Below, one piece after another: positions 1,528-62,485 of a DNA stretch of 64,000 nucleotides (positions within the stretch are counted from its first letter, which is position 1; every line of letters starts with the position of its first letter). The position numbers were made by a program, and so were the translations under genes. The notes under the pieces are model-generated. The model did no database searches. It was not told the origin of the DNA and saw only the letters and a program-made list of their open reading frames with translations. Origin of the DNA: an uncultured Halobacteriales archaeon (GTDB taxonomy: Archaea; Thermoplasmatota; E2; JACPAO01; JAHFTW01); assembly GCA_964627625.1 (NCBI GenBank), contig CAZVJB010000002.1, positions 92,197 through 156,196 on the forward strand, written 5' to 3'.

Positions 1528-2872
1528 GCAGCATCACCTCCGAAGGGGCGCTGGTGGCGGGCGCATCGGGCGCCAAATGCGTGGGCCGCAACGATTCGCG
1601 GGCGGCAGCGGCGGCATCATGTTCCTGCCAAAGCTTCCAGGCCGCGTAGAGGCCAAACGGAATGTTGGCCAGCAACCATGCGATTGCGACCCCAACCAGG
1701 CCGAAACGTGCGGCCAGGAGGGGAGCCAAGGCGGCCAGGGCCAGCATCATGGCAGCGGGGAAGACGAGAAGTGGAGCCCAACGGTCGCGGGCGCGCAAGA
1801 CCGAAAGGTAGAGGTACGATGGTGCCACGAAGAGGACGCTAGCACAGAGAACCACGAGGACGGGGCCACCTGCCTGGGCGTAGCCTGGCCCGAAGACGCC
1901 CAGGGCAGGGCCCGCGATGGCCATGCCGACGAGCGCCGCGGGAACAACAATTACTAGGTGGTGCAGCGCGGCCCGTCGAATGGCCGAAGCTTGACCGCTG
2001 GGGCCGGCGCGCACCATCTCGGCAAGGGCGCTCCGGCTCATGGCGGCCGACGCGAGAAATAGTAGTGATGCAGCGGTCCAGGCGATAGCGAAATAGGCCG
2101 CGGCCTCGGCGCCATCGATTGCCAGCACGAGGGGGGCAAGGAGCAATCCGGGCAGGAACTCCGCGGCGCTGCCGGAGACGTTGCGCATGGCGCTTTGCAG
2201 GAAGGCGCGACGCGGGACCAACCGGCCAGAGCGCGCGGGAATCCGGCGAGCAAAACCGACCGCCGCCAGGGCAGAGCATAGAAGGGCAAGCGCCCAGGTG
2301 ACGGCGACAGGGTAGGGCGACGCGAGAAGGACAATCGGCAGGGGGAGCAGCACGCGAGCCGCGGACAGGACGAGGTTGCGCTGGAAGCTGAATTTGGCGT
2401 CGCCTTCGGCAAGGAAGTACGCGTCCTGGAGCCAAGTGACGACGAGCAGGATTGCGATGGCCGCCACCATGAACCAGCCGAGGGGGGACAATTGCGCCAT
2501 CGCATGGCCGCCGAATGCCGCAGCAGCGATGCCCGTTGTCAATGCCACGGAAACGGCGGCGCCGGCAAGCGCGGCAAAGCGTAGCAGGCGGCCAGCCTCC
2601 TCCCGGCTTGCACCTGGAACGCTGCGCAGGAGGGCAGTATCCAGGCCGCCCTTGGCCAGGACTCCGACAATGGTGCCAAGGGCCACGAGGGCCGCCCCAA
2701 GGCCAATCTCGACCGGCGGCAAGCCGGCTACGCGAGCGAGAATCAGCCAGAACAGAAGGCCTGCCGCGGCGCCGGTTGCCGTGTTGAGCATGAGGTAGTA
2801 CGAATTGCGGTGCTGGACTTGGCCGAAGTGGGTCGTAGCGCGGCTGCGCCAAGTCGTCGTTCCTCTCGGCAC
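1490..2872 (-). CDS. Polysaccharide-biosynthesis/oligosaccharide flippase-like polytopic membrane protein (MOP/Wzx-like)
   Basis: 460 aa, about 12 predicted TM helices, composition typical of Wzx/PST-family flippases. It is adjacent to and co-oriented with the GT2. Confidence 0.6.
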   Translation of the reverse strand: MPRGTTTWRSRATTHFGQVQHRNSYYLMLNTATGAAAGLLFWLILARVAGLPPVEIGLGAALVALGTIVGVLAKGGLDTALLRSVPGASREEAGRLLRFAALAGAAVSVALTTGIAAAAFGGHAMAQLSPLGWFMVAAIAILLVVTWLQDAYFLAEGDAKFSFQRNLVLSAARVLLPLPIVLLASPYPVAVTWALALLCSALAAVGFARRIPARSGRLVPRRAFLQSAMRNVSGSAAEFLPGLLLAPLVLAIDGAEAAAYFAIAWTAASLLFLASAAMSRSALAEMVRAGPSGQASAIRRAALHHLVIVVPAALVGMAIAGPALGVFGPGYAQAGGPVLVVLCASVLFVAPSYLYLSVLRARDRWAPLLVFPAAMMLALAALAPLLAARFGLVGVAIAWLLANIPFGLYAAWKLWQEHDAAAAARESLRPTHLAPDAPATSAPSEVMLLASPVRRGPYPE

Positions 2873-2881
2873 GTCAGCGCC

Positions 2882-3688
2882 TCACGCGGTCGCCGAACCG
2901 GTCTCGTCTCGATCGGCATGGGAAGACGTGGTCGGGGAGGACGTGGTCGGCAAGTCGATGTTGCTCCTCGTTTGCTGACGCAGCAGGCGGCGGACGAAGT
3001 CATGATCAGATAGTCCGTAGTGGCAACCCAAGCCATCGCGCTTCCTGTGCAGGTCGCCCGACTCCAACATGCGCTTCAAGTGATAGCCAAGTGTCGAGTC
3101 CGCACAGCCTAGGCTACGGCGCAGCGCGGTCCGGTTCATGGGGCCCGCAAGCAGGAGTTGGCCGATGCGTCGGGGCACGAGCCGCGAGAATCGGGCCAGG
3201 CCCGGGCGCATCTCGGCGTCATGGTTGCTGGTGACGAAGAAGCGCTTGTAGCGGCCGTCGGACAATTCCACGACCAGGCCGTCGCGTTCGAGCCGATCGA
3301 GGTGGTGACGCAATTGTCCCGCGGATGTGAGGCGTGCCGCTCGGGCAAGGCCGCGAAAGTGCACGCCCGGTTGTTCCTGCACGATGGTAAACAGTGTTCG
3401 GCCGATGTCGCGGGCTGCGGCCTCAGGTGGAGAATCGGTCTCGAAGCCACGTGGCGCAGGCAGGTCAGGTTGTCGCCCCGGGCCGTTTGGGACCATTGCG
3501 TCACCGCGTGGCTCGTTGGGAGCGGCCGCAGCCTGGAGCATGGCAGGTCCCGCAAACCATTGGCCGGTGGCCGGCGCAACGGGCCCCGGTGGGTCATCGG
3601 GGTGCGGGGGTGGAACCGGCCTGTCGGGTTCTGGGGCAGGATTTGGATCCGGTCGCGGCTCTGGGGCTTCGCTCGGGTTCGCGACCAT
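2882..3688 (-). CDS. Tandem winged-helix (wHTH) transcription regulator with a Pro-rich disordered N-terminus
   Basis: Two wHTH-like units (…TLFTIVQEQPGVHFRGLARAARLTSAGQLRHHLDRLERDGLVVEL… and …LLLAGPMNRTALRRSLGCADSTLGYHLKRMLESGDL…). It is paralogous to 59444-59998, 61928-62485 and the C-terminus of 51098-53488. Confidence 0.6.
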   Translation of the reverse strand: MVANPSEAPEPRPDPNPAPEPDRPVPPPHPDDPPGPVAPATGQWFAGPAMLQAAAAPNEPRGDAMVPNGPGRQPDLPAPRGFETDSPPEAAARDIGRTLFTIVQEQPGVHFRGLARAARLTSAGQLRHHLDRLERDGLVVELSDGRYKRFFVTSNHDAEMRPGLARFSRLVPRRIGQLLLAGPMNRTALRRSLGCADSTLGYHLKRMLESGDLHRKRDGLGCHYGLSDHDFVRRLLRQQTRSNIDLPTTSSPTTSSHADRDETGSATA

Positions 3689-3837
3689 GTATCATCCGTT
3701 GGACCCCGGACCGGGATAAGCCATGCAGCCGCGGCAAGCGCGCCCTTGCGAATGCCCGCGGAAACCGCCGAAGCTGGGTCTGCGCGGCCCGGATGCCGCC
3801 CGCAACGGCCAAAAACCCCCCCTTCGTCGGCCAAGCC

Positions 3838-4029
3838 ATGCGTACCGGCAAGATCGTGGCCCTCTGCAGCTTGGCCCTTGGCGTCCTCTTCTACCTCGCG
3901 GCGATTGCCGGCATCATGTGGCCGGCCACACCGCCTATGGACGTTGGCGTCATTTCGACGTCCGCGGTCTTCGTGCTCTTCGGGCTCCTGGGACTCATGT
4001 TGAAGGACACCAGCCCAACGAACCAGTAG
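3838..4029 (+). CDS. Small two-TM membrane protein
   Basis: 63 aa, MRTGKIVALCSLALGVLFYLAAIAGIMWP…VFVLFGLLGLMLKD. ATG confirmed at 3838. It is the internal start of a longer track ORF whose upstream part is non-protein-like. Confidence 0.4.
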   Translation: MRTGKIVALCSLALGVLFYLAAIAGIMWPATPPMDVGVISTSAVFVLFGLLGLMLKDTSPTNQ

Positions 4030-4056
4030 AATAGTAGAAGAATAGTATGATCTGGC

Positions 4057-4809
4057 TCAAAAGACGCCGCTTGTGGCGGCAATGTAGATTGCGGCAAGCG
4101 CAAGCGCTGCGGCAAACAGCTGTGCCAATGGCCGTGCCTTGAGCCCGTGCGCGGCGCGGGTGCCAAACGTCGCAGCAGCCACGGCACCGATGGCGAGCGG
4201 CACGGCGGGCCTCCAGTCAAGCCCTGCGCTCAAGCTGACTGCCGACGCAATGGCCGCGTTGGTGAACACCGCAACGAGGCTTGACCCGACGGCCGTGTGC
4301 ATCGAGACGCCCACGATGGCCAGGACGGGCACGGAAATGATGCCGCCACCAATTCCTAGTAACCGCGAGGCGGCCCCGGCCACGACGCCAAGGGCGACGA
4401 CGAGTGGCGTTCCGGGTGTGCGTGCCTCGTCATGCGGCATGTGTGCGACGAGCCGCCAGGCCGCACCCAGCATGACGACGGCGAAAAGGAGTTTCAGGGA
4501 TGGTACCGGGAGGTTTGGCGCAAGGACGATGCCGGCGGCGACGCCGACGAGGCCGCCCACGGCGAGAAGGGGTCCAAGGCGCCAGTCGACGGCGTCGCGG
4601 CGGGCGTGCTGCCACACGCCAAGCGGGGGGTGGGCCAACATTGCGGCAAGCGATATGGCGGTTGCGACGCGGAAGTCCACGCCGGCGACGTAGACCAATG
4701 CCGGCACGATGAGGACGCCGCCGCCGATGCCGAAAAGCGTCGAAAGGAACCCGGCGCCCATGCCGAGGCTGGCCAGTCCCGCGAAGGTCATGGGATCGGA
4801 CGGGTCCAC
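4057..4809 (-). CDS. TSUP-family (TauE/SafE) sulfite/anion exporter-like permease
   Basis: 250 aa and very hydrophobic. It shows the TSUP pattern of duplicated 4-TM halves with G-rich motifs (FGIGGGVLIVPALVYV …LLGIGGGIISVPVLAIV). Confidence 0.75.
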   Translation of the reverse strand: MDPSDPMTFAGLASLGMGAGFLSTLFGIGGGVLIVPALVYVAGVDFRVATAISLAAMLAHPPLGVWQHARRDAVDWRLGPLLAVGGLVGVAAGIVLAPNLPVPSLKLLFAVVMLGAAWRLVAHMPHDEARTPGTPLVVALGVVAGAASRLLGIGGGIISVPVLAIVGVSMHTAVGSSLVAVFTNAAIASAVSLSAGLDWRPAVPLAIGAVAAATFGTRAAHGLKARPLAQLFAAALALAAIYIAATSGVF

Positions 4810-26079: not shown

Positions 26080-26582
26080 AGGCATTCAAGTGGCAACGCG
26101 CAGCCCTGTTACGGGCTGTTTGTTGTCATTTGTCTGACAGTCACATTGGGGGTGACCTATTTAGGAGTTTGGGAAAAAATCGACCGCGCAAAGGACCGCC
26201 ACATCTGTTGAGTCACCAATGCACCGGCGGACATGAACCTTCGTTTCCGATGCACTCCATCGGAAATGGTGGTCAGGCCGAGTGTTTTCCGGCCCGGCCG
26301 TGATGAAGGAAACCGGCCCCGGCCATCCCGAGTGGGAGGCGGGAGGGGGAGCTACAATTGGCCGGGGCCAGCTTCCAGTATCAGCAACAAGGCGCCTGCG
26401 GTGGGAAAGGTTGTTCGGGGGGTGGGTGAAACCTAGATGGGGGGTTGTCCTGAAAATGGCCGCCCGCTGCGATACCAAACCGCGGAGCGCGCGGAACACG
26501 CGGAAACTGTTCCGCGGTCTCCGCGATTTCCGCGGTTCGTCGGTGGCATCCGTGGCCCAACCGGAATTCTAGGACACTCCCC

Positions 26583-27807: not shown

Positions 27808-27899
27808 GGCTCATGCGCCGCGCCAAATCACGGTACGCAGCCCCCACCCGTTCCACTTAAGTGGGACACCCCCGTCGCCAAAATCCCGCCACCGCACTG

Positions 27900-28320
27900 C
27901 GATGGCGGCCCGGCGTAAGGCGGGGACTAGGTTGAGGGAATAGGCACCCCTACCAGGCGCAAGTCTACATGGCGCGACCGAACCCCTGTCGTGGCGCTCG
28001 GGGTCCGCTGCAAGCCCTCGTCTTACGGTGAAACCTCGTCCCCCGAGGTCGGCGGTGGCGGGAAACTTTCCGGAAGGGAAGCCGAACGCCTTCGCTGCGG
28101 GGACCGGGTCAGGCCCGGAAGGGAGCAGCCTTACCGCAAACGACCGACGTTTGGGGGGGCGCGGGGTGGAGAACAACGAGGGATTCATCTTGCACGGGTC
28201 TCGGGTTGCCGCGGCAGGAGTGTCCCCGCCCGCTAAAGGCTACGGCCTTCTGGCCGTGATTCCACGGACGAAGGATTCCGCTGATTCTGACGTAGGGCCG
28301 GGGCGGGGGCCGTCATCGAA
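27900..28320 (+). ncRNA. ffs: Signal recognition particle RNA (7S / SRP RNA); ends approximate
   Basis: The window contains GGUCAGGCCCGGAAGGGAGCAGCC (28101-28127), which matches the universally conserved SRP RNA helix-8/domain IV consensus GGUCAGGUCCGGAAGGAAGCAGCC. The ~400-nt region is GC-rich, highly self-complementary and has no credible ORF. The 5' and 3' ends could not be fixed by eye. Confidence 0.55.
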
Positions 28321-31410: not shown

Positions 31411-32384
31411 CGGAGGCGGCCAGCCTGACGCAAGGGATGAACGTTGCCGGGGGCCGACGTTGCAGGAATGCTGTGGCCCCGTCACGCGATTTGGCGCCCG
31501 CTTCGCCTTGCCTTGCGCCGCCGCGCTGCATTCGTCGGCTCGCCGTCCGGCGGCCCTTCCGGGCCGCCATCAGCGCCGTCTCGCTCTTCGAGCTCGACGG
31601 CTCGGCCGGGGGTTTCCGTGGATTCTTGTTCCACCGGGACTCTGGCGCGCCACCAGCCGGAGCACGCGTCCATTTCTGGTCGCGCCTCACATCGGGTTCA
31701 TGGTCCGCCATCGGGTTCATGCGTGTTCCCCCACCGCCGGGGCGCGCCCCAGGCGGCCACGCCATCGCCTGCGTCGAGGCTCGCCCGACCCCGCCCCGTT
31801 AGCCCATCTCTGACAAGTCGGCGGCGTCCTGTCGGCGAGGGGCCGAACGCGGCCGCGAAGCGCCGCCTGTCGACTTTTGCCTTGGCTGGCTTGGGGCCGA
31901 AGGCTTGGAAAGCCGCTGGCCCCAACCGTGATGATCGACCTTTCTGAAGGTCGCGGGCGTGGCGGTAGCGGGCGGCGCGTGCGCGCAGCGCCGCGTGGTT
32001 GCGTGGGCCGGCGGGAGGACGCCGTCCGACCTTTTCCTAGTTTGACTGTTTCATCGGTTGGTCGAGCGGCGCGTTGGCGGCCCCCGGCGGCCCTGGCCCC
32101 CACGCTCGCCTTCGGCTCGCAAATCGGCCTGCCAAACCCTCGCACCGCCTCGCCCTCCGGGCTCGTCGGCTCGCCCCGACCGGGGGCAATTCATCGTTCC
32201 ATTCCTTCAACAAGGCGACGACGCCGTCGGAGGACTACGAGAATGGGTCGATGGTCTTCATCAAGCAGGTTTTCGGTTCCGTGATTTCCGTGAATTCCGT
32301 GGTTCGGTCGATGGCCCGCGGACAAGTTTCACGCAATGGATGCAATTCGCCGTTGCCTTGCTGCGCGGGGCGTCAAGGAACGAA

Positions 32385-49151: not shown

Positions 49152-50774
49152 TCATCCGTGATGACTATGATGGCATGCGACCTGTTGGCCAAAGGCCGCG
49201 GCCGGCGGGGTGTTGTGTGCAGGACACGTCTCACCCTCCACTGGATTCCTTGTCAGCCACGGGTCAACGATGGCTTCCCCGTAAATGCTGCTGCCCGGTC
49301 CATCGTCCGACCCCCACCAATTCCAGCGCGCATCGACGGGAATCGTTGCAGCCGTGGGATTCCAATTGAATTGTGCCTGGTCAGTATTTACTAGGCCGTA
49401 GCGCGCATTGTCGACGAAGGTGTTGTTCCGGAAGACCGGCTTCTCTTGGCCGACCACGAAGGCGCCATCGACGAGGTTTCCCTCAAACGAGTTGCCCGAC
49501 ACCTCGGAGGTTCCAAGCGGACGACTGGAAAGTTGGCGCAGGATTGCGCCCTCCTCGTTGCCAACGAAGCGATTGTTGCGTATTCGAATCGGGTCTCCTT
49601 GTTGGTACAGACCGAACGAGGTCTGGCCTACAATCTCGTTTCCTTCAATCAAGACGGGAGCGTCCGTCGTCCAGATGCCGGCCGTGTTGTTCGCGATGAG
49701 GTTACCAAGGATATCGGCCTTGACGCCAGGCCCGCAATAGGGGTCGCCGCCATCGACCATGATTGCCATGCCAAATGGAGCGGCCCCGTTGTTCCCAACG
49801 ATTTGGTTTTCCTGGATGAGTACGTACGTTTCGGGACCACAGGCAAACCAACCTGCGGCGTTGTCCTCAACGATGTTCGCGTGAAACGTGGCCTGGCTTC
49901 CAGCCCAGGCCAGGAATGCAAAGTAGTTGCCGGACAGCGTGTTCCCTTCGAAGGCGGCCTGCGAATTGTGGAGTTTGGCGCCGAACGTGAAGCCGTGCAA
50001 AACGTTGCTCGCGAAGCTAAGTGCCTGGCTGTCGCGGACGATAACTGCCGCATCATCATCTATCGGAATCACGGATTTCTGCAGCGGACAGTTGACAAGG
50101 CCATCGCACGTGGTGTCCCGTAGGTCACGCAACATCGGGGAACGACTGGCGTTGACGAGCTCGTCACGAACCGCGTAACCCAAACGCGACGGAGGAGAAA
50201 CGACATTAGAGGTAAGGTCTATGGCGGTAGACGTCTCGACGACGACACCATAGGGATACCCATCCACACTGTTCGACTCGAAGTGCACGTTGGCGGCGTT
50301 CCACGTTCGCAGCCCAACCCATCCGGGGGGCATGACGAATGGGGCGCCGGGCTCGAGCCAATTGTAGGAATCGTCCGCTGTGGTGCCGACGTGGGTGCAT
50401 ATCCCCCAGGTGGGGAAGTTACAGATCACGAAGGGCGGCAAGTAAGCAGGCTGGAGCAACTCGTTGCCGCGCACCACGACATGGGCGTCCGTGTTGGCGA
50501 TGAATATGCCGGCGGCTGCACCCCCCACGATGGCCCAGTTCTGGATGATGTAGGGGTCAGTGGGCGTCCCAGTTCCGGACAGGACGCCGTTGGCCGCATT
50601 GAAATCCATGTTGGACAGGATTGTGATGGGAGCGCGCGGCGTCTTGGAAGGCACATCGGGCAAGATGGGTGCTTCATCGTCCGGGAGCGGAAGCTGCCCA
50701 ACGGCGGGCCCGGAGACGACGGTGGCCATGATTGCCAAGCCTGCCAGGATAGATGCGCGAATTTGAATCGTCAT
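49152..50774 (-). CDS. Secreted right-handed parallel beta-helix repeat protein (NosD / pectate-lyase-like fold)
   Basis: Signal MTIQIRASILAGLAIMATVVSGPAVG. Repeated N/G/V-rich ~22-aa PbH1-like turns (…NIVEDNAAGW…, …NQIVGNNGAAPFGMAIMV…, …GNLIANNTAGIWT…, …GNEIVGQTSFGLY…). Confidence 0.7.
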   Translation of the reverse strand: MTIQIRASILAGLAIMATVVSGPAVGQLPLPDDEAPILPDVPSKTPRAPITILSNMDFNAANGVLSGTGTPTDPYIIQNWAIVGGAAAGIFIANTDAHVVVRGNELLQPAYLPPFVICNFPTWGICTHVGTTADDSYNWLEPGAPFVMPPGWVGLRTWNAANVHFESNSVDGYPYGVVVETSTAIDLTSNVVSPPSRLGYAVRDELVNASRSPMLRDLRDTTCDGLVNCPLQKSVIPIDDDAAVIVRDSQALSFASNVLHGFTFGAKLHNSQAAFEGNTLSGNYFAFLAWAGSQATFHANIVEDNAAGWFACGPETYVLIQENQIVGNNGAAPFGMAIMVDGGDPYCGPGVKADILGNLIANNTAGIWTTDAPVLIEGNEIVGQTSFGLYQQGDPIRIRNNRFVGNEEGAILRQLSSRPLGTSEVSGNSFEGNLVDGAFVVGQEKPVFRNNTFVDNARYGLVNTDQAQFNWNPTAATIPVDARWNWWGSDDGPGSSIYGEAIVDPWLTRNPVEGETCPAHNTPPAAAFGQQVACHHSHHG

Positions 50775-50880
50775 TACGGTGGACTCCTGTTGTACGCCAT
50801 GGGCCGACGGGAAATCCGGCGACTTGGCGGGCAGGTGTCATCGCCGCTGTTTCGAGTTAAGGATTTGCCGGCGTCCTTGA

Positions 50881-50894
50881 GGTGATTTCATAAC
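50881..50894. promoter_or_regulatory. GGTGATTTCATAAC motif about 200 nt upstream of the Kelch/TSP3/wHTH gene; near-identical to a motif at 57649
   Basis: Seen directly: 50881 GGTGATTTCATAAC and 57649 CGTGATTTTTCATAAAC. Confidence 0.35.
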
Positions 50895-51097
50895 TTCCAG
50901 ACAGATGTGCTGGAGTGAATGTATTACCCAATGACTATTAGAACTCGAATCTGGTGTTTTGAGTGCCGGCGGGTCCGGGGTGGTCGCATCGGGGAATTGC
51001 ATGCATCGTGCCAGAGAGGCCGATGCTGGGCAGGGCGTTCCATGGCTACACCATCAACGGGCGCGCTAAGGGCGGTTTCCGGAGACTCCTGTTGACC

Positions 51098-53488
51098 ATG
51101 CGTCTGGGGATGGGAATCGCGATTGCCGGGCTCCTTGGAACCCTTCTAATCCCAATCGGCGAGGCAGCAATCTCATCGGATGCCCGCGTATCAACCGACG
51201 GCTACCTCCCAAGCGGGCGTCATGGGGCGGGCGCGGTGTGGGATTCCGTGCGGCATGTCGTCTACATATTCGGCGGCTTCGACGAGAAGCTCCAAACGGA
51301 CACTGCCGAAATCCTGGAGTTTGACCCGGCATCCTCGGCACGCAACGCGACACTAATCGGCCATCTTCCAGGACCCATGTCGGGCCTTGTCGCCGTCTGG
51401 ACGGGCGAGGTTGCGTACATCGTCGGAGGCGACTCGGATGCAATCATGCAATTCGATCCCGCCACCGCCACGCTCACGGTCCTATCGGTCCGCTTACCCC
51501 ATACCGTGGACTCCCCCGCCGCGGTCTGGACGGGCCGAGCGATGTATCTTTTCGGCGGCACCTCCGATTCCTCCACGCCCGTCGGCACCATCATGCGCTT
51601 CGAGCCCGACGAGATGACTGCCAGCACCCTTGAGGAGACTCTACCTCGCGCTGGGCACTACGCAGCCGTCTGGTCCGGCGATGGCACCGCATACATCCTC
51701 GGCGGAGGCGGAAACGAGATTTACGCATTTACTCCCAACCACGCGCCCTCCCTGGTTCAGCTGAATGTCACCTTGCCGCTGGCCATCGATGCAGCCGGCG
51801 CCGTTTGGGACGGTACAGCCGTGCTCGTCTTCGGTGGTCGGGAGGCTGACGGCAGCCCCAATGGAGGGACGGCTCTCGACACAGTAATACGGTTTGATCC
51901 ACAAGCGCCTCCGTCACAGAGTGTGTCGTATTGGCCGAACCTGCCCGTTCCTGGCACCGAACTTCGAGGCGTCCCCCGCCCCTGCGACAGCGCGTTTCTT
52001 TTGGGTGGCAAATGGCAGACCGCCTCTCTCTATGACGCCATATCGAGGTACGGCCCGCCGCAGTCGACTCCCGGGGATTGCCTCGGGCCCAAGAAATCAG
52101 ACCCGCAATCAGACCCGCAATCCGCGTCCGCAAAGGTATTGCAAGCGGATTTCACGTGGCATTCCAAACCGGTCAAGTGCGGTCCTCGCTCCGTATCGTT
52201 TACTGACACATCAACCCCCGGCGATGCCCCAATCGTCTCATGGGGGTGGGACTTTGGTGACGGCTCGCAATCCGCCGAACAAAACCCCCAACACACCTAC
52301 GCCAATTCGGGAACCTACACCGTCCGCGAAACCGTCACGGATTCCGCGGGAAGCACATCGACGTACGAGACGACGGTCTACGCGCCTGCAAACAAGGAAT
52401 GCATTGAGAAAACTTCACCCTCGTCGACGCAGCATGGGGCGCGGCCGCCGCGCGATGGCAACGGCGAAGCTTCGGGAGACGCCGATGGGGACGGTATCTC
52501 AGATTCGGATGATGATTGCCCCTTCACTGCCGACCCCGAACAGTTAGACGCTGATGGCGATGGCATCGGAGACGTATGCGACGACGACGCGGACAACGAC
52601 GGCATCCGCAACGTGGTCGACAATTGTCCAGTGGTTCCCAACCGGGCCCAAACCGATTTTGATGCCGACGGCTTGGGGGATGTCTGCGACCCCGACGCTG
52701 ATGGCGATACCGTCGCTAATGAAGTGGATAATTGCCTCCAGATGGCCAACGCGGACCAACTGGACAGCGATGCGAACGGTATCGGCGATTCCTGTGATTT
52801 CAAGCAGTCCAACCTATCAAACGAAGCAAGCCAACCTCGCCCAATTTCGAGGGCACGGGGGGTAGCGTCTGTCGGTCGCGAAACGTCCGCGAACGGAGCC
52901 ATTCCCCTGGCAATCGGCATCGCCATCCTCTTGGCCATTATCGTTGCCGCCACCTGTTGGCGAATCGCGCAAGCCAACGCCAGGGGGCCAACAGTCTCCA
53001 AGACGAAGACGCCTCCCGTGGTGTTGCTCTTTAGCCGCATTGGCGACGCCGACCTTCTCAAGCACCCAATTCGCAAACACCTCGTCCAAATCATCCATGA
53101 AAAGCCAGGCATCACGTTCATCGAACTGGTTGCGGCCTCGGGCAAGGGCCGCGGCACAATCGAGCACCACTTGGCGACCCTACAGGCCGGCAGAATCATT
53201 CAAGCTGAACGATCCGGTCGATTCCTGTGTTACTATGCGCGGCCATTGAAGCCGCACGACGCCGAGCGAACCGTGGCGCTACGGTCGGCGTTGGCGCAAG
53301 CCGTGGCTCGTCTGGCCATCCGGCGTCCTGGGACGACGATGTACGAAGCATCCCGCCAACTCGGCGCGGACTACACGGCCATCAAGTACCACGCACGGCG
53401 CCTGGCCGCGGCGGGAATCATCTCGGTAACGCCCGACAATCGCCTGCACGGCGGAGCATGGCACATTCACAACGACACCCGAACGTAG
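51098..53488 (+). CDS. Membrane-spanning fusion: extracellular Kelch propeller, PKD and TSP3 repeats; one TM helix; cytoplasmic tandem winged-helix DNA-binding domains
   Basis: Signal MRLGMGIAIAGLLGTLLIPIGEAA. Kelch-like blades (VYIFGGFD…, AYIVGGDSD…, MYLFGGTSD…, AYILGGGGN…, VLVFGGREADG…). PKD WGWDFGDGSQS…HTYANSGTYTVRETVTD. TSP3 DADGDGISDSDDDCPFTADPEQLDADGDGIGDVCDDDADNDGIRNVVDNCPVVPNRAQTDFDADGLGDVCDPDADGDTVANEVDNC…. TM IPLAIGIAILLAIIVAATCW. Then …HPIRKHLVQIIHEKPGITFIELVAASGKGRGTIEHHLATLQAGRII… and …TMYEASRQLGADYTAIKYHARRLAAAGIISV…, the two wHTH units shared with 59444-59998. The start may be the upstream MLGRAF at 51023. Confidence 0.75.
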   Translation: MRLGMGIAIAGLLGTLLIPIGEAAISSDARVSTDGYLPSGRHGAGAVWDSVRHVVYIFGGFDEKLQTDTAEILEFDPASSARNATLIGHLPGPMSGLVAVWTGEVAYIVGGDSDAIMQFDPATATLTVLSVRLPHTVDSPAAVWTGRAMYLFGGTSDSSTPVGTIMRFEPDEMTASTLEETLPRAGHYAAVWSGDGTAYILGGGGNEIYAFTPNHAPSLVQLNVTLPLAIDAAGAVWDGTAVLVFGGREADGSPNGGTALDTVIRFDPQAPPSQSVSYWPNLPVPGTELRGVPRPCDSAFLLGGKWQTASLYDAISRYGPPQSTPGDCLGPKKSDPQSDPQSASAKVLQADFTWHSKPVKCGPRSVSFTDTSTPGDAPIVSWGWDFGDGSQSAEQNPQHTYANSGTYTVRETVTDSAGSTSTYETTVYAPANKECIEKTSPSSTQHGARPPRDGNGEASGDADGDGISDSDDDCPFTADPEQLDADGDGIGDVCDDDADNDGIRNVVDNCPVVPNRAQTDFDADGLGDVCDPDADGDTVANEVDNCLQMANADQLDSDANGIGDSCDFKQSNLSNEASQPRPISRARGVASVGRETSANGAIPLAIGIAILLAIIVAATCWRIAQANARGPTVSKTKTPPVVLLFSRIGDADLLKHPIRKHLVQIIHEKPGITFIELVAASGKGRGTIEHHLATLQAGRIIQAERSGRFLCYYARPLKPHDAERTVALRSALAQAVARLAIRRPGTTMYEASRQLGADYTAIKYHARRLAAAGIISVTPDNRLHGGAWHIHNDTRT

Positions 53489-56500: not shown

Positions 56501-57308
56501 CGCACCACCCGCGCCCCCGAGCCAGCCGCCGAGCGACCCGGCCGACCCGGATGCATCCAAGCCGCCGCTCGGCGTGGACGCGGGAGCTGACCAAACCGTA
56601 ACCGAATCGGCGATCACCAAGCTGCAAGCAACCGTCACGGGCGGGTCGCAAACAGTGGCGTGGGTGCAAACGTATGGGCCGCGCGTGGACTTGACGCAAA
56701 CAGGCACGTCGGCGTCGTTCGTCGCCCCCGCTTTAACGGGATCGCGCATCGTCTTGTACTTCGAACTTCACGCCCAAGACGGCGAACGCGTCGGCGCGGA
56801 TGGCGTCATGATTGAAGTCGAATCCAATGAGCCAACGCCGGCCGCACAAGTCGCGGGCGACGCAACGGTGGCGCCTGGCGCCGTGGCCATGCTGGATGGT
56901 ACGTCATCCTCTGGCGGAAACGGCAACTCCTTGACGTACAAGTGGACGCAATGGGAAGGCCCAGCCGTCACGCTCGTCGGTGCCGACACGCCGATGGCCA
57001 CCTTCACCGCGCCCGACGAAGCGGCCACGCTGCGCTTCGCCCTGGAAGTAAGTGACGGCCACTCATCGAGCCTCGCCATCCAGACCATCGTGGTCGATGC
57101 CTCGGCGGCACTCGGCGGCGAACCGGAGCCGCTTCCATCCGCCTCCGTCCCGACCGTGGATCCCGATGGCTCGCCGGCCACGGCGACGCAGGCGCCAAGC
57201 GGATCCAACGTGGCCGCTATCGCCGCCGCGGCCGTAGTCGCGTTGCTAGGCGTCGGGGGGGCTTTCATCGGCCTGCGCCATCTCCGGGCAAGGCCGGAAC
57301 GTACCTAA
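53528..57308 (+). pseudogene. Giant (~1260 aa) surface protein (signal/TM, FN3, tandem Ig-like, PKD and VCBS-like domains, C-terminal TM anchor), split by a frameshift in a C7 homopolymer near 54185-54191
   Basis: Track ORFs 53528-54604 and 54228-57308 overlap. Upstream of 54228 the second frame reads …LPPGTGTWEVGQNGQMWQNAP… with no Met. Removing one C from the ccccccc run fuses …PQPAPPP to GTGTWEVGQ…. Downstream are FN3-like domains (…TTVYRIYRS…SYAYKVAAVN), two ~100-aa tandem repeats (GGSFAW(D/N)ADNKGGFTY…CG…GDSFQY(Q/R)LKDVT…), PKD motifs (WAWTFTGG…, WAWSFGDGGSG…), and C-terminal AAIAAAAVVALLGVGGAFIGL followed by RHLRARPERT. Confidence 0.55.
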
Positions 57309-57647
57309 CCCTCGCCGGACCGGGCCGTCCAGGAAATGACCCGCCGCTAGACCCAATCCGCCCCCGGGGGGATGCGTTATTCCGACCAACCCACCGACCG
57401 ACCACCCCCGGGGGACCCCAGCGCCGGCAGGGAATACCCCAATATTTTCTGAGAGGGCAACTAGAGGTTTTTGGCAAGAGTTACAAGCCTGAGTAGACGT
57501 GAGCGGCGTATCCCGCAGTTCGGGCTGCCTTTGGCCTTCCGAGCCAAGGGTGCTGCTCGCGGGGCGGCCAGGAATGTGACCAAAAATGCAACGCTATCTT
57601 GACCAAAGAGGGAGCAAACTAGCGGGGCGCGTACCAGTGCGATGTGA

Positions 57648-57699
57648 CGTGATTTTTCATAAACCCGCATTCGTGATTTTCTGCAAATCGTGAATCGTG
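57648..57699. promoter_or_regulatory. Three CGTGA(T/A)T repeats (57648, 57672, 57689) immediately upstream of the peptide/receptor/HTH cassette
   Basis: aCGTGATTTTTCATAAAC…tTCGTGATTTTCTGCAAATCGTGAATCGTGtcg. Related to ttCCGTGATTTCCGTGAATTCCGTGG at 32277-32302. Confidence 0.35.
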
Positions 57700-57728
57700 T
57701 CGCTTGCGCCTTGGCGCACGTGAAACCC

Positions 57729-57923
57729 ATGAAAACCACACTTGCAATCGGACTCGTACTGACCGCCACCCTCCTGATGACTGCCCCTGTTGCGTCCGCC
57801 GATGGTGACGACTTGCCCACGGTTGATAGCGTCACCGCGTGGGCAAGCACCTGCGTGGGCATCTGGCCGGGCCACTTCCCCCCGGTCTTCGTGGATGTTG
57901 GCTCCTGTCTTGATGTAACGTAG
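57729..57923 (+). CDS. Small secreted Cys-containing peptide (65 aa), hypothetical
   Basis: MKTTLAIGLVLTATLLMTAPVASA signal, then a 40-aa mature part with two Cys (…STCVGIWPGHFPPVFVDVGSCLDVT). ATG confirmed at 57729. It lies 52 nt upstream of the receptor-like gene. Confidence 0.35.
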   Translation: MKTTLAIGLVLTATLLMTAPVASADGDDLPTVDSVTAWASTCVGIWPGHFPPVFVDVGSCLDVT

Positions 57924-57974
57924 TTCCTTATCCGGAATACGCCTCCCGTCCAATCGGGCCTTGCCCTCTCTTCC

Positions 57975-59447
57975 ATGAAGCCCCTGCCCTTGCTCTTGGC
58001 CGTTCTGCTTTTCATGGCTGCAAGTGCAGCCGCCGCAAGCGATTTCACGTTCGATTCTGCCGCAGGGCACGGCCCGCTCCAATTGACACCGCAGGGTTTC
58101 GCGCTGCTGCATACGACGGCCAGCGTCGATTGGACCCTGACGGCCACTTCGATGCGAATCAAGGTCGTGGATGACCGCGAAGACAACGCCATCCCGGACC
58201 CAGCCAATCCGGACGACAGCCTGGTTTCGGTGTTCAACCGGACGACGACGTACCACGATTTCGCGGCGGCGACGCTGCATTGGGTTTCCCTTTCGAATCC
58301 GGTCTCAATCATCCAGGGTCCCGGCATCCTTGCCGAAAACGTCAGCGGTCAACTTGCCCTGACCACGGTGTCGCCAAGCAGCATCGAACAGTCGCACTAC
58401 GTTATGGCCACTCCAGTCGGTGCTCCCGAACTGCAATACGATGTGCTCGTACCCGCGTCGCTGCGAGTCAAAGCGACCGCCGTGGCGGACATCCTTGGCA
58501 ACGTCACTCTGTACTCGTGGAGCAACGACATCCAAGTGCGGCATTCCGGCGGAGCCTTCGAGCTGCGCACCGGCAAGTACACCGACATGCCGGTCACGCA
58601 AGGAAGCCTGCGATCGCGGCACTACGTGCACGCGTTTCTTGAACTGCGCACCGCCAGGGCCAACCTCGCCATTCCGGCGGCGGCCTTCTACGCCGAAGGC
58701 CTGCAAGTCGAAAGCCATGGTATCCTGCAATTCTCCAACCTGACCGGAGAACTCCCCGGCCCTACGGGTTTGGCGACGGCCACAGGGGGAATCGTGACCG
58801 CCTCGGCGGGGACGTTTGCCCTGTCACCGACTGGAACCGGCATCGGCGGCACTGTACTCATTGCACCTGAAGCCGTCGCTGGCACAACTGCGCGGCTTCC
58901 AGGCACCGCGCTTCCTGGCGGGGTATGGCTTGCGTTGAGCGGCATGCTGTTTGTTGGCGTGGTCGCCGCGCCAAGCGTCCATGGTCGCCGGGTCCGCCAA
59001 CGGGAGGCCGCCACATGGCTTGGGTTTAGGGACGACCGGGCAACAGCGTATAGCAATTGGGCCGCACGCGCCGACAACCAGGGCTGGAACCACGCCGCAG
59101 CCCTGCTGTTCTGGCGGGCTACTCGAAACAGCCCCACGAGTCCGGAGTTGCGATGCGAGTACGGCGTCCTCCTGCGGCAAAGCGGCCGTCCCAAACGGGC
59201 CTTGCGCCAGCACGTCCTCGTCGGGGAAGTCCTGGCGCGTTCGTTTGATCCAGGCTGCGGCGCCCTCAATGCCTACAGCGCTAGCCTGTGTTGCGCCGCC
59301 CTTGGGAAGGATGGGGCGGCGCTTGAGTGGCTGCAAGCCGCAATCGAGGCTGATCCGGGTTTCACTGAAACGGCCCTTAAGGAGCCCCGACTGCGACGCC
59401 TCAGAGCACACCCCGATTATCCCGCCATCGTCGGGGCCATCGCATGA
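57975..59447 (+). CDS. Type-I membrane receptor-like protein: signal peptide, ~310-aa ectodomain, one TM, cytoplasmic helical (TPR-like) domain
   Basis: Signal MKPLPLLLAVLLFMAASAAAAS. TM VWLALSGMLFVGVVAAP followed by HGRRVRQRE. Cytoplasmic …YSNWAARADNQGWNHAAALLFWRATRNSP…LQAAIEADPGF… is helical-repeat-like. Confidence 0.6.
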   Translation: MKPLPLLLAVLLFMAASAAAASDFTFDSAAGHGPLQLTPQGFALLHTTASVDWTLTATSMRIKVVDDREDNAIPDPANPDDSLVSVFNRTTTYHDFAAATLHWVSLSNPVSIIQGPGILAENVSGQLALTTVSPSSIEQSHYVMATPVGAPELQYDVLVPASLRVKATAVADILGNVTLYSWSNDIQVRHSGGAFELRTGKYTDMPVTQGSLRSRHYVHAFLELRTARANLAIPAAAFYAEGLQVESHGILQFSNLTGELPGPTGLATATGGIVTASAGTFALSPTGTGIGGTVLIAPEAVAGTTARLPGTALPGGVWLALSGMLFVGVVAAPSVHGRRVRQREAATWLGFRDDRATAYSNWAARADNQGWNHAAALLFWRATRNSPTSPELRCEYGVLLRQSGRPKRALRQHVLVGEVLARSFDPGCGALNAYSASLCCAALGKDGAALEWLQAAIEADPGFTETALKEPRLRRLRAHPDYPAIVGAIA

Positions 59448-59998
59448 CGTCGCGGTCGCGTGACGGCGATGAGGCGCGCGACTTGTTTGCAGTTCCAACC
59501 CGGCCCCGCGCCGCGCACAGAATCGTTGGCGTCGATGGCCTTACTGAAATCCAGCGGCAGGCCTATGATTTCGTCGTGCTCAATCCCGGCGTGACCATCC
59601 AGGAAACGGCCGTTCACATGCGAAGCAGCCACTCCACGGCCACGTACCACTTGTTGGCCTTGACGCGCCTCGGACTCGTGGAGGCCGTCCGGGCGGGACG
59701 CCAGCTTCGCCACTTTCCCTTGCCCCGCGGCTACTCACGTGAACTCTACCTGAAAGTCTTGAACCGCGATCCCAAGCGGGCCGCCTTGGTGCATTTCCTG
59801 CGCGACGCGCCCGTGGCGGGCATGACCATCAACCACATTGCCGGGAAAACGGGGCTCCCTTTCGGCTTCGTGAAGCGCACGCTTGAGCAATTGGAACGAA
59901 TGCACTTCGTCCATCTACGGCGACGCCACTACCGGTACCGCGTCGAGGTGACGCGCGAATTGCTTGCCGGTCGCGCCGACGACCTTTTTCCCGCGTAG
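59444..59998 (+). CDS. Tandem wHTH transcription regulator, overlapping the stop of the receptor-like gene (ATGA)
   Basis: …EIQRQAYDFVVLNPGVTIQETAVHMRSSHSTATYHLLALTRLGLVEAV… and …RAALVHFLRDAPVAGMTINHIAGKTGLPFGFVKRTLEQLERMHFVHL…. Same family as 2882-3688, 61928-62485 and the tail of 51098-53488. Confidence 0.65.
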   Translation: MTSRSRDGDEARDLFAVPTRPRAAHRIVGVDGLTEIQRQAYDFVVLNPGVTIQETAVHMRSSHSTATYHLLALTRLGLVEAVRAGRQLRHFPLPRGYSRELYLKVLNRDPKRAALVHFLRDAPVAGMTINHIAGKTGLPFGFVKRTLEQLERMHFVHLRRRHYRYRVEVTRELLAGRADDLFPA

Positions 59999-60087
59999 GT
60001 TTCATCCTATCGCATGCAAGATGCTCGCACGATTTTGCATAAGGCGCCAGGCCGAGCGGCACATGGGGCCTTGCGCGGGCACCGTGT

Positions 60088-60330
60088 TCACGTGAAGTGC
60101 CACGGCACCAAGATGCCCCCGCAGTTTTCCGTGGCAAAGCACCGCATGTCGGTGCATTCGGCACGCAGTTCCACGTATAACTCGCTCCATTCCTGCACCA
60201 AGACGCGACGTTCGCCACACAGGGTGCATTGCACGGCAATCGGCGGCTGGTCGTTTGATTCGCCAGCCTCACTTGCCGTGGTCACGGACCACGGTTTTTC
60301 CTTGACTGAAACAATGTCGTACGCCACAAT
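60088..60330 (-). CDS. Possible small zinc-ribbon protein (GTG start), very tentative
   Basis: The C-terminal ~70 aa of minus ORF 60088-60630 are protein-like (…PIAVQCTLCGERRVLVQEWSELYVELRAECTDMRCFATENCGG…). The upstream part is low-complexity. Confidence 0.2.
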   Translation of the reverse strand: MVAYDIVSVKEKPWSVTTASEAGESNDQPPIAVQCTLCGERRVLVQEWSELYVELRAECTDMRCFATENCGGILVPWHFT

Positions 60331-61053
60331 GTTAACTATCTTGTGCCGGCAATGTAAGCCGGGCTGCGGCTTTCTGAAAAACACGGACCAGCCTCCAGGA
60401 CGAAAGCCGGCCCCGCGCGGTACCCCCCACAAATTCCTGTCGCGCGGGCGTGGCCGACGTCGGATGGCATCTGCCGCTGCGAAGGACCGGTCCCCTGGGC
60501 TGATTCTGACCAGGATTCCTTCGCCTTGTTTCCTCCGTTGCGTATCCCGCCGCGCCGTTTCGTCCTGGTCGGCCGTCGTGCCGGGCCCGCCGCACTTGAC
60601 TCCTCGGGGCCCGCGTAGTCCCGCCTGCATCGTGCGTCGCGTCCACCGGCCTTATATGGAAATCTGGAGTCGGCGCCGCCAACGCTAGGCTTGGCATCGA
60701 TTCGAAGTCCCGTATCCACAAGCAATGGTTTGTGCACCAAAGAGTGATACTTAGCCCCGTATTCCTCTTAGTGCTAAACAAAATATTTTGGGTGGGGGAG
60801 GTTCGGAACAGGGCTTCGGGGGGTTCCGCTTTTTTCTTGCGGACTAGACGTAGCGGACGGCTGTGAGGCCCCACTAGTGTGGGGCCATACGGACGTACGC
60901 GAAGGTATAGGCCAGCAAGGGAAAGAGAGTGGAAACACGCGTGTGCGCGGGTTTCAGAAACTTCACAAACAAAAGGAATCTTGTTTACGCAGTCGAAGAC
61001 CACGGAATCATTGGCCAAACCAATTTCTTTCTCCAGTTGGACGGGGGTGATTC

Positions 61054-61737
61054 TCATAGTAGCCTCCTTTGGACCAGTAGTGGTTCGGGTGGCATAGGTG
61101 TTTCCACTTCCTTCCGTGGATCCGGGAAGGCCGGGTCCAGTCGGTCGGGTCGTCCGTCCCAGCGTACGGGTATGAATCGGTTGTCGATGTGTCGCAGCTG
61201 CGTCGGTTTCGACCAGCCGGGCACCCAGCAGGCCATCATGTAGCCCGCGCCGTCGGTTTGCCCGTTGGCTGTGAAGCCCGGACGAGCCGGGAGGGGGTAA
61301 GCGGCGGCGGCAGGGAAAATGCGCCAGAACCGCTCGTAACGCGTCTGACCCTCAAAGAAGTTCAACCGCAAGAGAAACGCCAGGAACCATCCAGGGTTGG
61401 CTTGGCATTTGATTCTGGTCTGGACGAGTCGCGGCGACGAGTTGCGGTAAGCTGCTGGGAGGTGTGCCATAGTCCGCCCTCCATGGCCCGCCCCCCATAC
61501 GCCGCCATCAGGAGACACGGCCCGATGGGGCGGGCTGATGGCACGGACTATTGGCATGGCTGCGCCAATGACTTGGCCATCGACGTGGCCAACGAGTTGC
61601 GGTAGTCCGTTGGCAGCCGTTATGCGGCATTTGGGCAGGTGTGCCATAGGCCGCCCTCCATGGCCCGCCCCCCATACGCCGCCATCAGGAGAAACCACTG
61701 TTGGGCGCGCAAGGGTGGCGGCCATCATTCCCACCAC
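61054..61737 (-). CDS. Hypothetical protein whose N-terminal half is encoded by an imperfect direct DNA repeat (VSPDGGVWGAGHGGR(P/T)MAHLP twice); it may instead be a non-coding repeat element
   Basis: The C-terminal half is protein-like (…NFFEGQTRYERFWRIFPAAAAYPLPARPGF…HIDNRFIPVRWDGRPDRL…). The N-terminal half coincides with the 58-bp direct repeats at 61461 and 61638. Confidence 0.3.
   Translation of the reverse strand: MVGMMAATLARPTVVSPDGGVWGAGHGGRPMAHLPKCRITAANGLPQLVGHVDGQVIGAAMPIVRAISPPHRAVSPDGGVWGAGHGGRTMAHLPAAYRNSSPRLVQTRIKCQANPGWFLAFLLRLNFFEGQTRYERFWRIFPAAAAYPLPARPGFTANGQTDGAGYMMACWVPGWSKPTQLRHIDNRFIPVRWDGRPDRLDPAFPDPRKEVETPMPPEPLLVQRRLL
61461..61695. repeat. 58-bp imperfect direct repeat, two copies 177 bp apart
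   Basis: ggtgtgccatag(t/g)ccgccctccatggcccgccccccatacgccgccatcaggaga(c/a)ac appears at 61461 and 61638, each preceded by cgagttgcggta. Confidence 0.6.
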
Positions 61738-61927: not shown

Positions 61928-62485
61928 TCACGCCGATACCTCCGCGGCTAAAACGGCCGCAATCGTGGGAGCGACGTCCCGTACCGACCAGGCCGGGCGA
62001 GGCGTCACGTGGTAGACCACGCGGGGGCCGAAGGTGCGGCGCGTCACTAGGCCGACGGCCGTCAAGCGGCCCAAGGCGTGCTGGGACGATGAACGCGGCA
62101 AAGCAAGCGCATCAAGAACGGCGCTTTGGAAGACCGGCGCAAGCCGCTCCACCACACGCAGCACGCCGTACTGTTTCGGCGTCAGATTAGCCATGGCGGC
62201 CAGTCGGTTTGCAATCTCAGGCGGCGGCCGAGAACCCGCAAAGTGCAACAACCGAACGTCCTGGCGCGCCGTCCAGGCCAAGCCAAACCGCGCAAGCAGC
62301 CGGACATGATGCGCCAAGCAACCGGTCGAAATATTCGTTGCCGCCGCCAAGCGACGAAACCCCAGACCCGGCTGGGCAGCCAACGTGTCCAATATCAATT
62401 GTCGACGCGGATGTGCCGCCACGTTGCCGGCGCGGACGCGTTCCATCAGAACACCGCCCGACCCGGGCAAGCCGGATGCGGGCAA
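61928..62485 (-). CDS. Tandem wHTH transcription regulator (fourth paralogue)
   Basis: …RRQLILDTLAAQPGLGFRRLAAATNISTGCLAHHVRLLARFGLA… and …ANLTPKQYGVLRVVERLAPVFQSAVLDALALPRSSSQHALGRLTAVGLVT…. Confidence 0.6.
   Translation of the reverse strand: MPASGLPGSGGVLMERVRAGNVAAHPRRQLILDTLAAQPGLGFRRLAAATNISTGCLAHHVRLLARFGLAWTARQDVRLLHFAGSRPPPEIANRLAAMANLTPKQYGVLRVVERLAPVFQSAVLDALALPRSSSQHALGRLTAVGLVTRRTFGPRVVYHVTPRPAWSVRDVAPTIAAVLAAEVSA

Follow-up and report, generated by a model that had tools for sequence, protein, structure and literature searches.

Two palindromic candidate operators and a leader hairpin conserved upstream of a rare archaeal peptide/receptor/tandem winged-helix cassette

The DNA upstream of a three-gene cassette in an uncultured Thermoplasmatota archaeon carries two 15-bp palindromic boxes and a hairpin that are kept in the same layout in four genomes. 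The cassette is predicted to encode a secreted peptide, a membrane receptor with a TPR tail and a tandem winged-helix (wHTH) protein. We consider it probable that this DNA is a composite control region, in which the boxes would be operators for the cassette's own ArsR-like tandem-wHTH protein and would mediate its autorepression. An earlier note on the same DNA had described one motif common to this promoter (site 2) and to that of a fused receptor-wHTH gene (site 1), with related repeats elsewhere, and had read it as a good candidate for the operator of the tandem-wHTH family. What it observed was partly confirmed and its interpretation is partly supported, as the conserved element belongs to the cassette and has a different sequence definition.

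The cassette and its relatives

The window, that is, the whole stretch of 64,000 nucleotides analyzed here, has a G+C content of about 63% and is archaeal, because it carries an SRP RNA of archaeal type at 27920-28229. The nearest relative of the cassette proteins is found in a MAG annotated as a Thermoplasmatota archaeon. The genes of the cassette are the following:

57729-57923, plus strand: small ORF of 64 aa, cassette gene 1, with a signal peptide and a conserved Cys...G..PPV...CL core
57975-59447, plus strand: putative receptor of 490 aa, with a signal peptide, an ectodomain, one TM segment and a cytoplasmic tail with TPR matches
59444-59998, plus strand: tandem winged-helix protein of 184 aa, the candidate box binder, whose start overlaps the receptor stop codon

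The gene order is conserved, and the small ORF is kept in four genomes with its signal peptide, two invariant cysteines and G..PPV core. The genomes compared with the window are given below, with protein identities to the window:

L002, NCBI MAG: wHTH protein 62%, receptor 47%
L004, Logan assembly: wHTH protein 55%, receptor 45%
L017, Logan assembly, 71% G+C: wHTH protein 44%, receptor 29%

Two further loci (L001 and L015) come from the same organism as the window, two others (L016 and L018) end inside the receptor gene and inform on gene order only, and a fifth cassette with matching gene order is known from a gene list without DNA. A search of genome and metagenome collections with the 490-aa protein as query returned no match. 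Upstream of the cassette, the neighboring gene in the window is co-directional and encodes a PKD-domain protein; the divergent neighbor is a wHTH gene in L002 and a response regulator gene in L017.

Two conserved boxes upstream of the cassette

The elements of the putative control region, together with two additional copies of the box located beyond the cassette, are as follows:

57651-57665, plus strand: box A, GATTTTTCATAAACC, the distal box, a 15-bp imperfect palindrome that includes site 2 of the earlier note; arms and position kept in L004, L002 and L017
57675-57689, plus strand: box B, GATTTTCTGCAAATC, the proximal box, a 15-bp palindrome 24 bp from box A, with invariant GATTTT/AAATC arms and a variable 4-nt center in the four genomes
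57697-57726, plus strand: hairpin, with an inner stem TGCGCC/GGCGCA at 57705-57718 and an outer stem in which the invariant CGTGA (57719-57723) takes part
60031-60045, plus strand: extra box copy, GATTTTGCATAAGGC, 33 nt past the wHTH stop codon
60369-60383, minus strand: weaker extra copy, TGTTTTTCAGAAAGC; about 43 nt downstream of it lies a GTTAAC box (60331-60336), ahead of a small Cys-rich ORF on the minus strand

All four genomes have a common layout, consisting of box A, box B, the hairpin, an invariant CGTGA and, some 10 nt further on, the ATG. The distance between the two boxes is exactly 24 bp in 4/4 genomes, and box B begins 53-56 nt ahead of the ATG, again in 4/4. Each of these orthologous promoters thus carries dyad-symmetric sites with conserved arms and fixed arm spacing. 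The eight box instances yield the consensus GATTTT-S-Y-R-N-AAA-Y-C, in which the correct spacing is N5 between 5-nt arms (N6 is wrong), and their centers are G+C-rich (CCGG in L002). In an alignment of three genomes, the invariant positions amount to 9/16 in box A, 1/7 in the spacer, 13/17 in box B, 2/15 in the next segment and 10/15 in the palindrome. Invariant arms around a variable center are the signature that recognition by a protein would be expected to leave.

The boxes were also recovered by matrices trained on other genomes. When about 128,000 positions of the window were scored with a matrix trained on L002 and L004 alone, box B came out on top and box A next, and the reciprocal matrices again placed the two boxes at the top in each of these two genomes. 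In L017, a matrix built from the other three genomes gave the boxes 21.9 and 19.3 bits, with the next match at 12.2. Throughout the 64 kb of the window, the box pattern with up to one mismatch is found only at the boxes themselves and at 32283. The extra copy at 60031 is the third-best matrix match in the window (16.3-20.0 bits), and in L004, too, a third copy follows the wHTH gene. At least two such matches in shuffled versions of the 1.7-kb segment 59999-61724 have a probability of 5e-4.

Elsewhere, the pattern TGATTTTN4AAATCN{20,30}GCGCACGTG retrieved from genome and metagenome collections only random bacterial or low-GC matches without context, and the module is therefore rare. No such motif was found upstream of the two other tandem-wHTH paralogs of the window (2882-3688 and 61928-62485, both on the minus strand), which does not support an operator common to the tandem-wHTH family. 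Taken together, the comparison of these sequences establishes the conservation of the layout and the specificity of the boxes for the cassette.

The earlier note had asked for conservation upstream of orthologous genes. Site 2 is conserved in the four genomes, as GATTTT-N4-AAAYC and not as the consensus proposed at the time, since the CGTGA prefix and the central CAT of site 2 fall on non-conserved positions. Its DNA is accordingly a strong operator candidate, with elements kept upstream of the orthologous cassettes. Autoregulation likewise becomes plausible for the split cassette, and only there, given the elements conserved in four genomes and the other motif definition. The comparison is limited to four genomes in which the box arms never vary, so no co-variation between protein and DNA ties the boxes to the cassette regulator.

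A covarying hairpin ahead of the start codon

Between box B and the ATG, an inverted repeat can fold as a hairpin in all the genomes compared. Its 6-bp stem reads TGCGCC/GGCGCA in the window and in L002, TGCGCA/TGCGCA in L004 and TGCCCC/GGGGCA in L017. Two of the six stem pairs show fully compensatory changes, each in a different lineage: at pair 4, L017 has C-G instead of G-C, and at pair 6, L004 has A-T instead of C-G. The loops are 2, 3, 3 and 9 nt long. Folding z-scores across the sequences are -2.5, -2.6, -1.9 and -1.3; the last value is that of L017, whose hairpin by itself is no better than shuffles. Because the loop length varies and the stem covaries, unlike the box arms, which never vary, this element is better read as a nucleic-acid structure than as a protein-binding palindrome. 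Compensatory pairs in four sequences lend moderate support to a structured RNA, probably located in the 5'-UTR. No Rfam family matched 57300-57760 at an E-value of 1 or better.

Operators or core promoter

The general TATA-like element of this host is short, with a 4-6 bp A/T core, and is built on TTAA. The sequence [CG]TTAA[CG] occurs at 0.72/kb in non-coding DNA vs. 0.08/kb in coding DNA (binomial P = 2e-4), and several start codons have it at -28 to -34, a position implying that many mRNAs are leaderless. The SRP RNA promoter was ambiguous as a TATA reference (it contains CCACTTAAGTGG near -60 as well as AAAAT near -36), and A/T-rich octamers were not specific as a generic promoter proxy. 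No TTAA is present in the cassette promoter of any of the genomes, nor anywhere in 57309-57728 of the window. In the 245-bp divergent intergenic region of L002, box B and the bases just ahead of it (3761-3785) are the sole A/T-rich DNA; hence the core promoter of L002 must overlap or adjoin box B.

This last observation gives some weight to the idea that the boxes are simply the core promoter. They would then comprise an unusual BRE/TATA, for example the TGATTTT arm or, in box A, ATAAAC, together with the initiator region, and would be kept because the basal machinery requires them, without any dedicated regulator. The TATA of L002 has to overlap the boxes, the distance from the boxes to the ATG is fixed, and the TATA boxes of this host are short anyway. 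Nevertheless, a single promoter requires one TATA, and here two symmetric boxes are found at a fixed spacing. Their right arms, AAATC, are conserved as strongly as the left ones although TBP/TFB binding does not need them, and their G+C-rich centers contain no TTAA core. Box-matrix matches are confined to the cassette and its flanks and are absent from the other promoters of the window, which sets the boxes apart from a general promoter consensus. We consequently regard a pure core-promoter role as unlikely. Because the boxes lack the TTAA-type consensus and occur only at the cassette, we favor cassette-specific operators, and a dedicated symmetric binder is suggested by the presence of two symmetric sites, by right arms conserved as well as the left ones and by centers rich in G+C.

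That binder could be another regulator, either neighboring or global, such as the divergent wHTH protein of L002 or the response regulator of L017. In both genomes the box region adjoins the divergent regulator gene, and the boxes show no co-variation with the cassette protein. Against this, the divergent neighbor differs from genome to genome and is missing from the window, where the DNA upstream of box A likewise contains no remnant of such a gene. No regulator other than the cassette wHTH protein is encoded at all four loci, and additional boxes lie next to its gene in both the window and L004. Control by an outside regulator thus appears improbable, and the 184-aa protein is most likely the box binder, a designation that rests on this association.

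The candidate binder

An AF2 model of the 184-aa protein predicts two consecutive wHTH domains (residues 35-92 and 99-169; mean pLDDT 75). Foldseek gave single-domain matches to ArsR, NolR, SrnR and AntR, with rmsd of 1.2-3.8 A over 61-86 residues, and each modeled domain superposes on ArsR-type repressors. The tandem arrangement had no good match among solved structures (TM about 0.35). By sequence score, membership of the ArsR/SmtB family is not established: NF033788, on the ArsR/SmtB side, reaches 25.9 bits vs. a cut-off of 55, Pfam HTH_5 reaches 19.5 vs. 22, and the ArsR/MarR-type matches in Pfam and NCBIfam all fall under their cut-offs, with the sole and marginal exception of TrmB (25.9 vs. 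25.6 bits). Sequence matches in the PDB had E-values of 0.2 or worse. The wHTH family comprises about 70 representative clusters at E <= 1e-10 and includes stand-alone proteins as well as C-terminal fusions to long membrane proteins. A palindromic site suits a homodimer better than a single chain with two non-identical wHTH domains.

A proposed mode of action

In the proposed mechanism, the operon under control would consist of the genes for the secreted peptide, the membrane/TPR receptor and the tandem-wHTH protein. The boxes would bind a symmetric wHTH protein, most likely the ArsR-like tandem-wHTH protein of the cassette, and their occupancy would compete with TBP/TFB and RNA polymerase, most likely repressing the operon by promoter occlusion. 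Autorepression is proposed because the boxes fill the only A/T-rich DNA available to TBP/TFB and RNA polymerase. Both repression as opposed to activation and an operator role as opposed to a core-promoter role are judged most likely from position only, and activation is possible. Upon sensing the secreted peptide or another signal, the membrane receptor would lift repression. The hairpin would most likely act at the level of RNA, on 5'-UTR stability or on access to the start codon, and the weaker copies at 60031 and 60369 suggest that a small local regulon may exist.

A more ambitious version can be imagined, in which the cassette is a self-contained archaeal peptide-signaling circuit with an autoinduction loop. 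The conserved 64-aa precursor would be exported and then sensed by the ectodomain of the 490-aa protein, the TPR tail would hold or release the wHTH protein, and the latter would act on the double operator. We view this complete circuit as speculative and rather unlikely.

Site 1 and the proposed common motif

Site 1 lies in the divergent intergenic region between the two following genes:

49152-50774, minus strand: gene for a secreted beta-helix/NosD-like protein, ATG at 50774, left of site 1
50856-50861: GTTAAG box, TATA-like with a TTAA core, in the divergent intergenic region between the beta-helix gene and the fused gene
50881-50894, plus strand: site 1, GGTGATTTCATAAC, outside the conserved box family and 20-33 nt downstream of the GTTAAG box
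Right of site 1, divergent from the beta-helix gene: fused receptor-wHTH gene, 821/841 aa

In the fused protein, Kelch, PKD and TSP3 domains are combined with a single TM segment, and the C-terminal part is a tandem winged-helix module that matches MsvR weakly.

The strings on which the common motif had been founded are present in the window: GGTGATTTCATAAC at 50881-50894, the CGTGA(T/A)T repeats at 57648, 57672 and 57689, and CGTGATTTTTCATAAAC, the latter at 57648-57664, one base before the 57649 first reported. The two sites had been described as near-identical. Their alignment requires a 2-base gap, the only exact words in common are GTGATTT and TTTCATAA, and the consensus drawn from both, GTGATTTYCATAAC, matches neither site literally, even with 3 mismatches allowed. 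The proposed alignment scores 21, and the best scores of shuffled regions average 20.6 (sd 2.4). On either strand the best score of the pair is 27, obtained with a different, reverse-strand alignment and reached by 9/500 shuffles, and by this measure the pair is 48th among 210 intergenic pairs. At least one exact 8-mer in common is found in 72% of shuffles, or in 18% when the promoter-proximal parts alone are considered. TTTCATAA with up to one mismatch occurs 10 times vs. 11.9 expected in the window, and CGTGAWT, for which a test of enrichment had been suggested, 16 times vs. 16.4 expected. What does exceed chance is the presence of three CGTGAWT within 60 bp at site 2 (0/300 block shuffles). 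This cluster is largely a by-product of the repeated TGATTTT arms of the two conserved boxes; its third member, at 57689, shares bases with the end of box B and is kept only in L004.

The notion that GTGATTTYCATAAC or CGTGAWT is a common tandem-wHTH operator at the fused and split promoters and at 32277, with cross-regulation between them, draws on a few genuine facts. Both sites are intergenic and upstream of genes with tandem-wHTH modules, exact TTTCATAA occurs just twice in the window, at sites 1 and 2, and 32283 fits GATTT-N5-AAAYC with one mismatch. However, site 1 has the left box arm without the right arm or the proper arm spacing and scores about 0 to -1 on the box matrix (rank about 640-720), and the parts that site 2 has in common with site 1, a GT prefix and the central CAT, are precisely non-conserved positions. 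The match at 32283 stands at noise level (10-11 bits), among matches in coding regions, and identity between the wHTH modules of the fused gene and of the split cassette is only about 25%. With a resemblance at chance level, CGTGAWT at background and the two other wHTH paralogs devoid of the motif, a common operator is highly improbable and cross-regulation of the fused gene loses its basis. Sites 1 and 2 are not copies of one operator, and their resemblance is coincidental.

What site 1 does instead may relate to its position. It begins 20 nt past the TTAA core of the GTTAAG box, and the leaderless genes of the window have their start codon 26-32 nt past such a core, which would put a rightward start at about 50883-50887; site 1 would then coincide with the predicted transcription start if the GTTAAG box fires rightwards. 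Under this interpretation, site 1 would simply mark where transcription of the fused gene begins, or belong to the leader of the divergent GTTAAG promoter, and would have no sequence-specific role. The site 1 region indeed has no direct repeats or short dyads of its own, apart from a single weak inverted repeat over a long range, whose arms (50802-50817 and 50861-50876) are 81% complementary and separated by 43 nt, and 50770-51110 gave no Rfam match at a permissive E-value of 1 or better. On the other hand, the beta-helix gene on the left may be the sole target of the GTTAAG box; this gene carries an AGGAG ribosome-binding site, and its leader is predicted to measure about 57 nt. In addition, another A/T-rich element, TATTAGAA at 50936, lies 27 nt ahead of an alternative GTG start at 50963. 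We therefore hold this explanation of site 1 to be possible, though doubtful. A search for orthologs of the fused gene in which to compare the site 1 string GTGATTTCATAAC found none and was swamped by TSP3 repeats; P0008 and P0244, examined as candidates, are not orthologs.

The triple repeat at 32277-32302, which had been counted among the candidates for the same operator, is present as described. It consists of 2.8 copies of a 9-bp unit and is situated about 60-110 nt beyond the stop codon of a gene on the minus strand. Given its noise-level score on the box matrix, it was rejected as a member of the box family. Its best look-alike, at 26509-26555, has a local score of 40 (second highest of 210 pairs) and is half of a longer imperfect palindrome (26481-26536); it is at most one possible paralog, and no further copies were found. 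The 32277 repeat thus appears to be a separate element.

Relationship to known systems

ArsR/SmtB-family regulators typically repress their own synthesis through A/T-rich inverted repeats at their promoters. The cassette resembles such autorepressors (SmtB at smtA/smtB, CzrA, NolR) in the ArsR-like sequence and predicted fold of its wHTH protein and in the paired A/T-rich inverted repeats at its own operon. It differs from them in that the protein scores under family thresholds and has two wHTH domains in one chain instead of forming a one-domain homodimer, the box is a 15-bp 5-5-5 palindrome and not a 12-2-12 repeat, the promoter is of the archaeal TBP/TFB type, and the partner genes, in place of a metal-resistance function, specify a secreted peptide and a membrane receptor.

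Among Archaea, the repressors MDR1, LrpA, Phr, TrmB (through its TGM motif, TATCAC-N5-GTGATA) and MsvR occlude the TATA/BRE or the transcription start. The likeness here lies in palindromic operators, some of them multi-copy, over the core promoter of the repressor's own operon, a position that is inferred for the boxes. Membership of these families is not demonstrated for the cassette protein, and the box sequence is unlike TGM.

Bacteria possess autoregulated peptide-signaling or sequestration cassettes, such as the RRNPP systems (Rgg/SHP, PlcR/PapR) and the ECF sigma/anti-sigma operons. As in RRNPP-type cassettes, the gene of a small secreted peptide adjoins those of a putative TPR-containing sensor and of a candidate DNA-binding regulator, and a conserved candidate operator precedes all three. 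RRNPP systems combine TPR and HTH in one cytoplasmic protein; here, by contrast, a membrane protein with a large ectodomain carries the TPR on its cytoplasmic tail, and the HTH has a gene of its own. The host is an archaeon, no RRNPP or sigma homology was found, and the cassette was not assigned to that type.

As candidate operators, the boxes are of a familiar kind, paired inverted repeats at the promoter of the operon that encodes a wHTH regulator. The archaeal cassette that they precede is rare and uncharacterized. Transmembrane transcription regulators (TTRs) are widespread in archaea and also occur in bacteria (PMC10269533). With its ectodomain, single TM segment and cytoplasmic DNA-binding module, the fused 821/841-aa protein resembles them, a likeness that concerns this neighboring gene and not the cis-motif.

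Concluding remarks

A single operator for the two related genes is not upheld, and the regulatory network that it implied should not rest on it. In its place stands a cross-validated cis-regulatory module in which two candidate operators at fixed spacing and a covarying leader hairpin precede a very rare archaeal cassette. The exact fragments and point mutations that this module offers can be used to test DNA binding by tandem-wHTH proteins and peptide-linked feedback in uncultured Thermoplasmatota. Moreover, the TTAA-core consensus, about 28 nt ahead of leaderless start codons, should aid the annotation of starts and promoters elsewhere in this genome. If true, the signaling circuit considered above would represent peptide-based cell-cell signaling in Archaea, with a defined promoter that could be used as a reporter.

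Probable Promoter Elements and Start Codons

The window is archaeal, as it contains an archaeal SRP RNA.

27920-28229 (+), archaeal SRP RNA, 162.6 bits

A perfect 12-bp palindrome, CCACTTAAGTGG, lies at 27853-27864, about 60 nt 5' of the SRP RNA start, and CCAAAATCC is located about 36 nt 5' of its 5' end. TTAA occurs only 22 times in the 64 kb. Non-coding DNA of the window is enriched about ninefold in [CG]TTAA[CG], which precedes several start codons at a distance of 28-34 nt. This element is probably the TATA box of the source organism, many mRNAs of which are probably leaderless.

20976, 21091, 28356, 45757, 43860, 9031, 50856 and 60331, examples of [CG]TTAA[CG]

The start of the fused receptor-wHTH gene is ambiguous, with three candidates: GTG 50963, which has TATTAGAA 27 nt upstream and would suit a leaderless mRNA; ATG 51023, the start in the public annotation, yielding 821 aa; and ATG 51098, immediately 5' of a hydrophobic segment.

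Tandem-wHTH Paralogs and Tandem Repeats

Two other tandem-wHTH paralogs were found, both nearer to the wHTH module of the fused protein than to the separate wHTH of the peptide-receptor-wHTH cassette.

2882-3688 (-), Pfam HTH_HVO_0163_N, 55.6 bits (above the 31-bit cut-off)
61928-62485 (-), Pfam HTH_HVO_0163_N, 29.1 bits (just below it)

Their upstream DNA contains neither the box motif (the imperfect palindrome preceding the cassette) nor the CGTGA(T/A)T-type sequence that the earlier note had proposed as a common operator.

32276-32321, 9-bp tandem repeat, TTCCGTGAA x2.8

One possible paralogous copy of this repeat, within 26481-26555, forms one half of a long imperfect palindrome in which CGCGGAACA x2.8 stands opposite TCCGCGGTC x2.9. 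Each repeat is found just beyond the stop codon of a minus-strand gene, in a long stretch devoid of a convincing ORF (31486-32384 and 26097-26582, respectively).

Cassette Surroundings

In other genomes, orthologous cassettes adjoin genes coding for histidine kinases (GAF-HisKA-HATPase) or response regulators, as also seen in the gene lists.

L002 (an NCBI MAG) 447-2923 (-) and L017 (a Logan assembly) 966-2161 (-), such neighbor genes

This hints that orthologous cassettes are tied to two-component signaling, a link absent from the window locus. In L002, a CCTTAAGG box (within 4010-4062) lies about 45 nt 5' of the receptor gene ATG, and its counterpart in the window is CCTTATCC (within 57924-57974), suggesting that an internal promoter may lie after the peptide gene and ahead of the receptor gene.

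Beyond the cassette wHTH gene, coding signal is weak throughout 59999-61724, which includes several A/T-rich islands.

60031-60045 (+), extra box-motif copy
60369-60383 (-), extra box-motif copy
60088-60384 (-), small Cys-rich ORF (CxxC...C...C) flanked by these copies

The Cys-rich ORF, which has a GTTAAC box ahead of it at 60331, gave no Pfam match. In the Logan assembly L004, TGTTTTGTGCAAATCGTG at 2385-2402 (+) is a third copy resembling box B, downstream of the wHTH gene and 58 nt 5' of a 91-aa ORF; a TTAG element follows this copy at about 23 nt. The extra boxes at 60031 and 60369 are possibly additional targets of the putative regulator of the cassette boxes.
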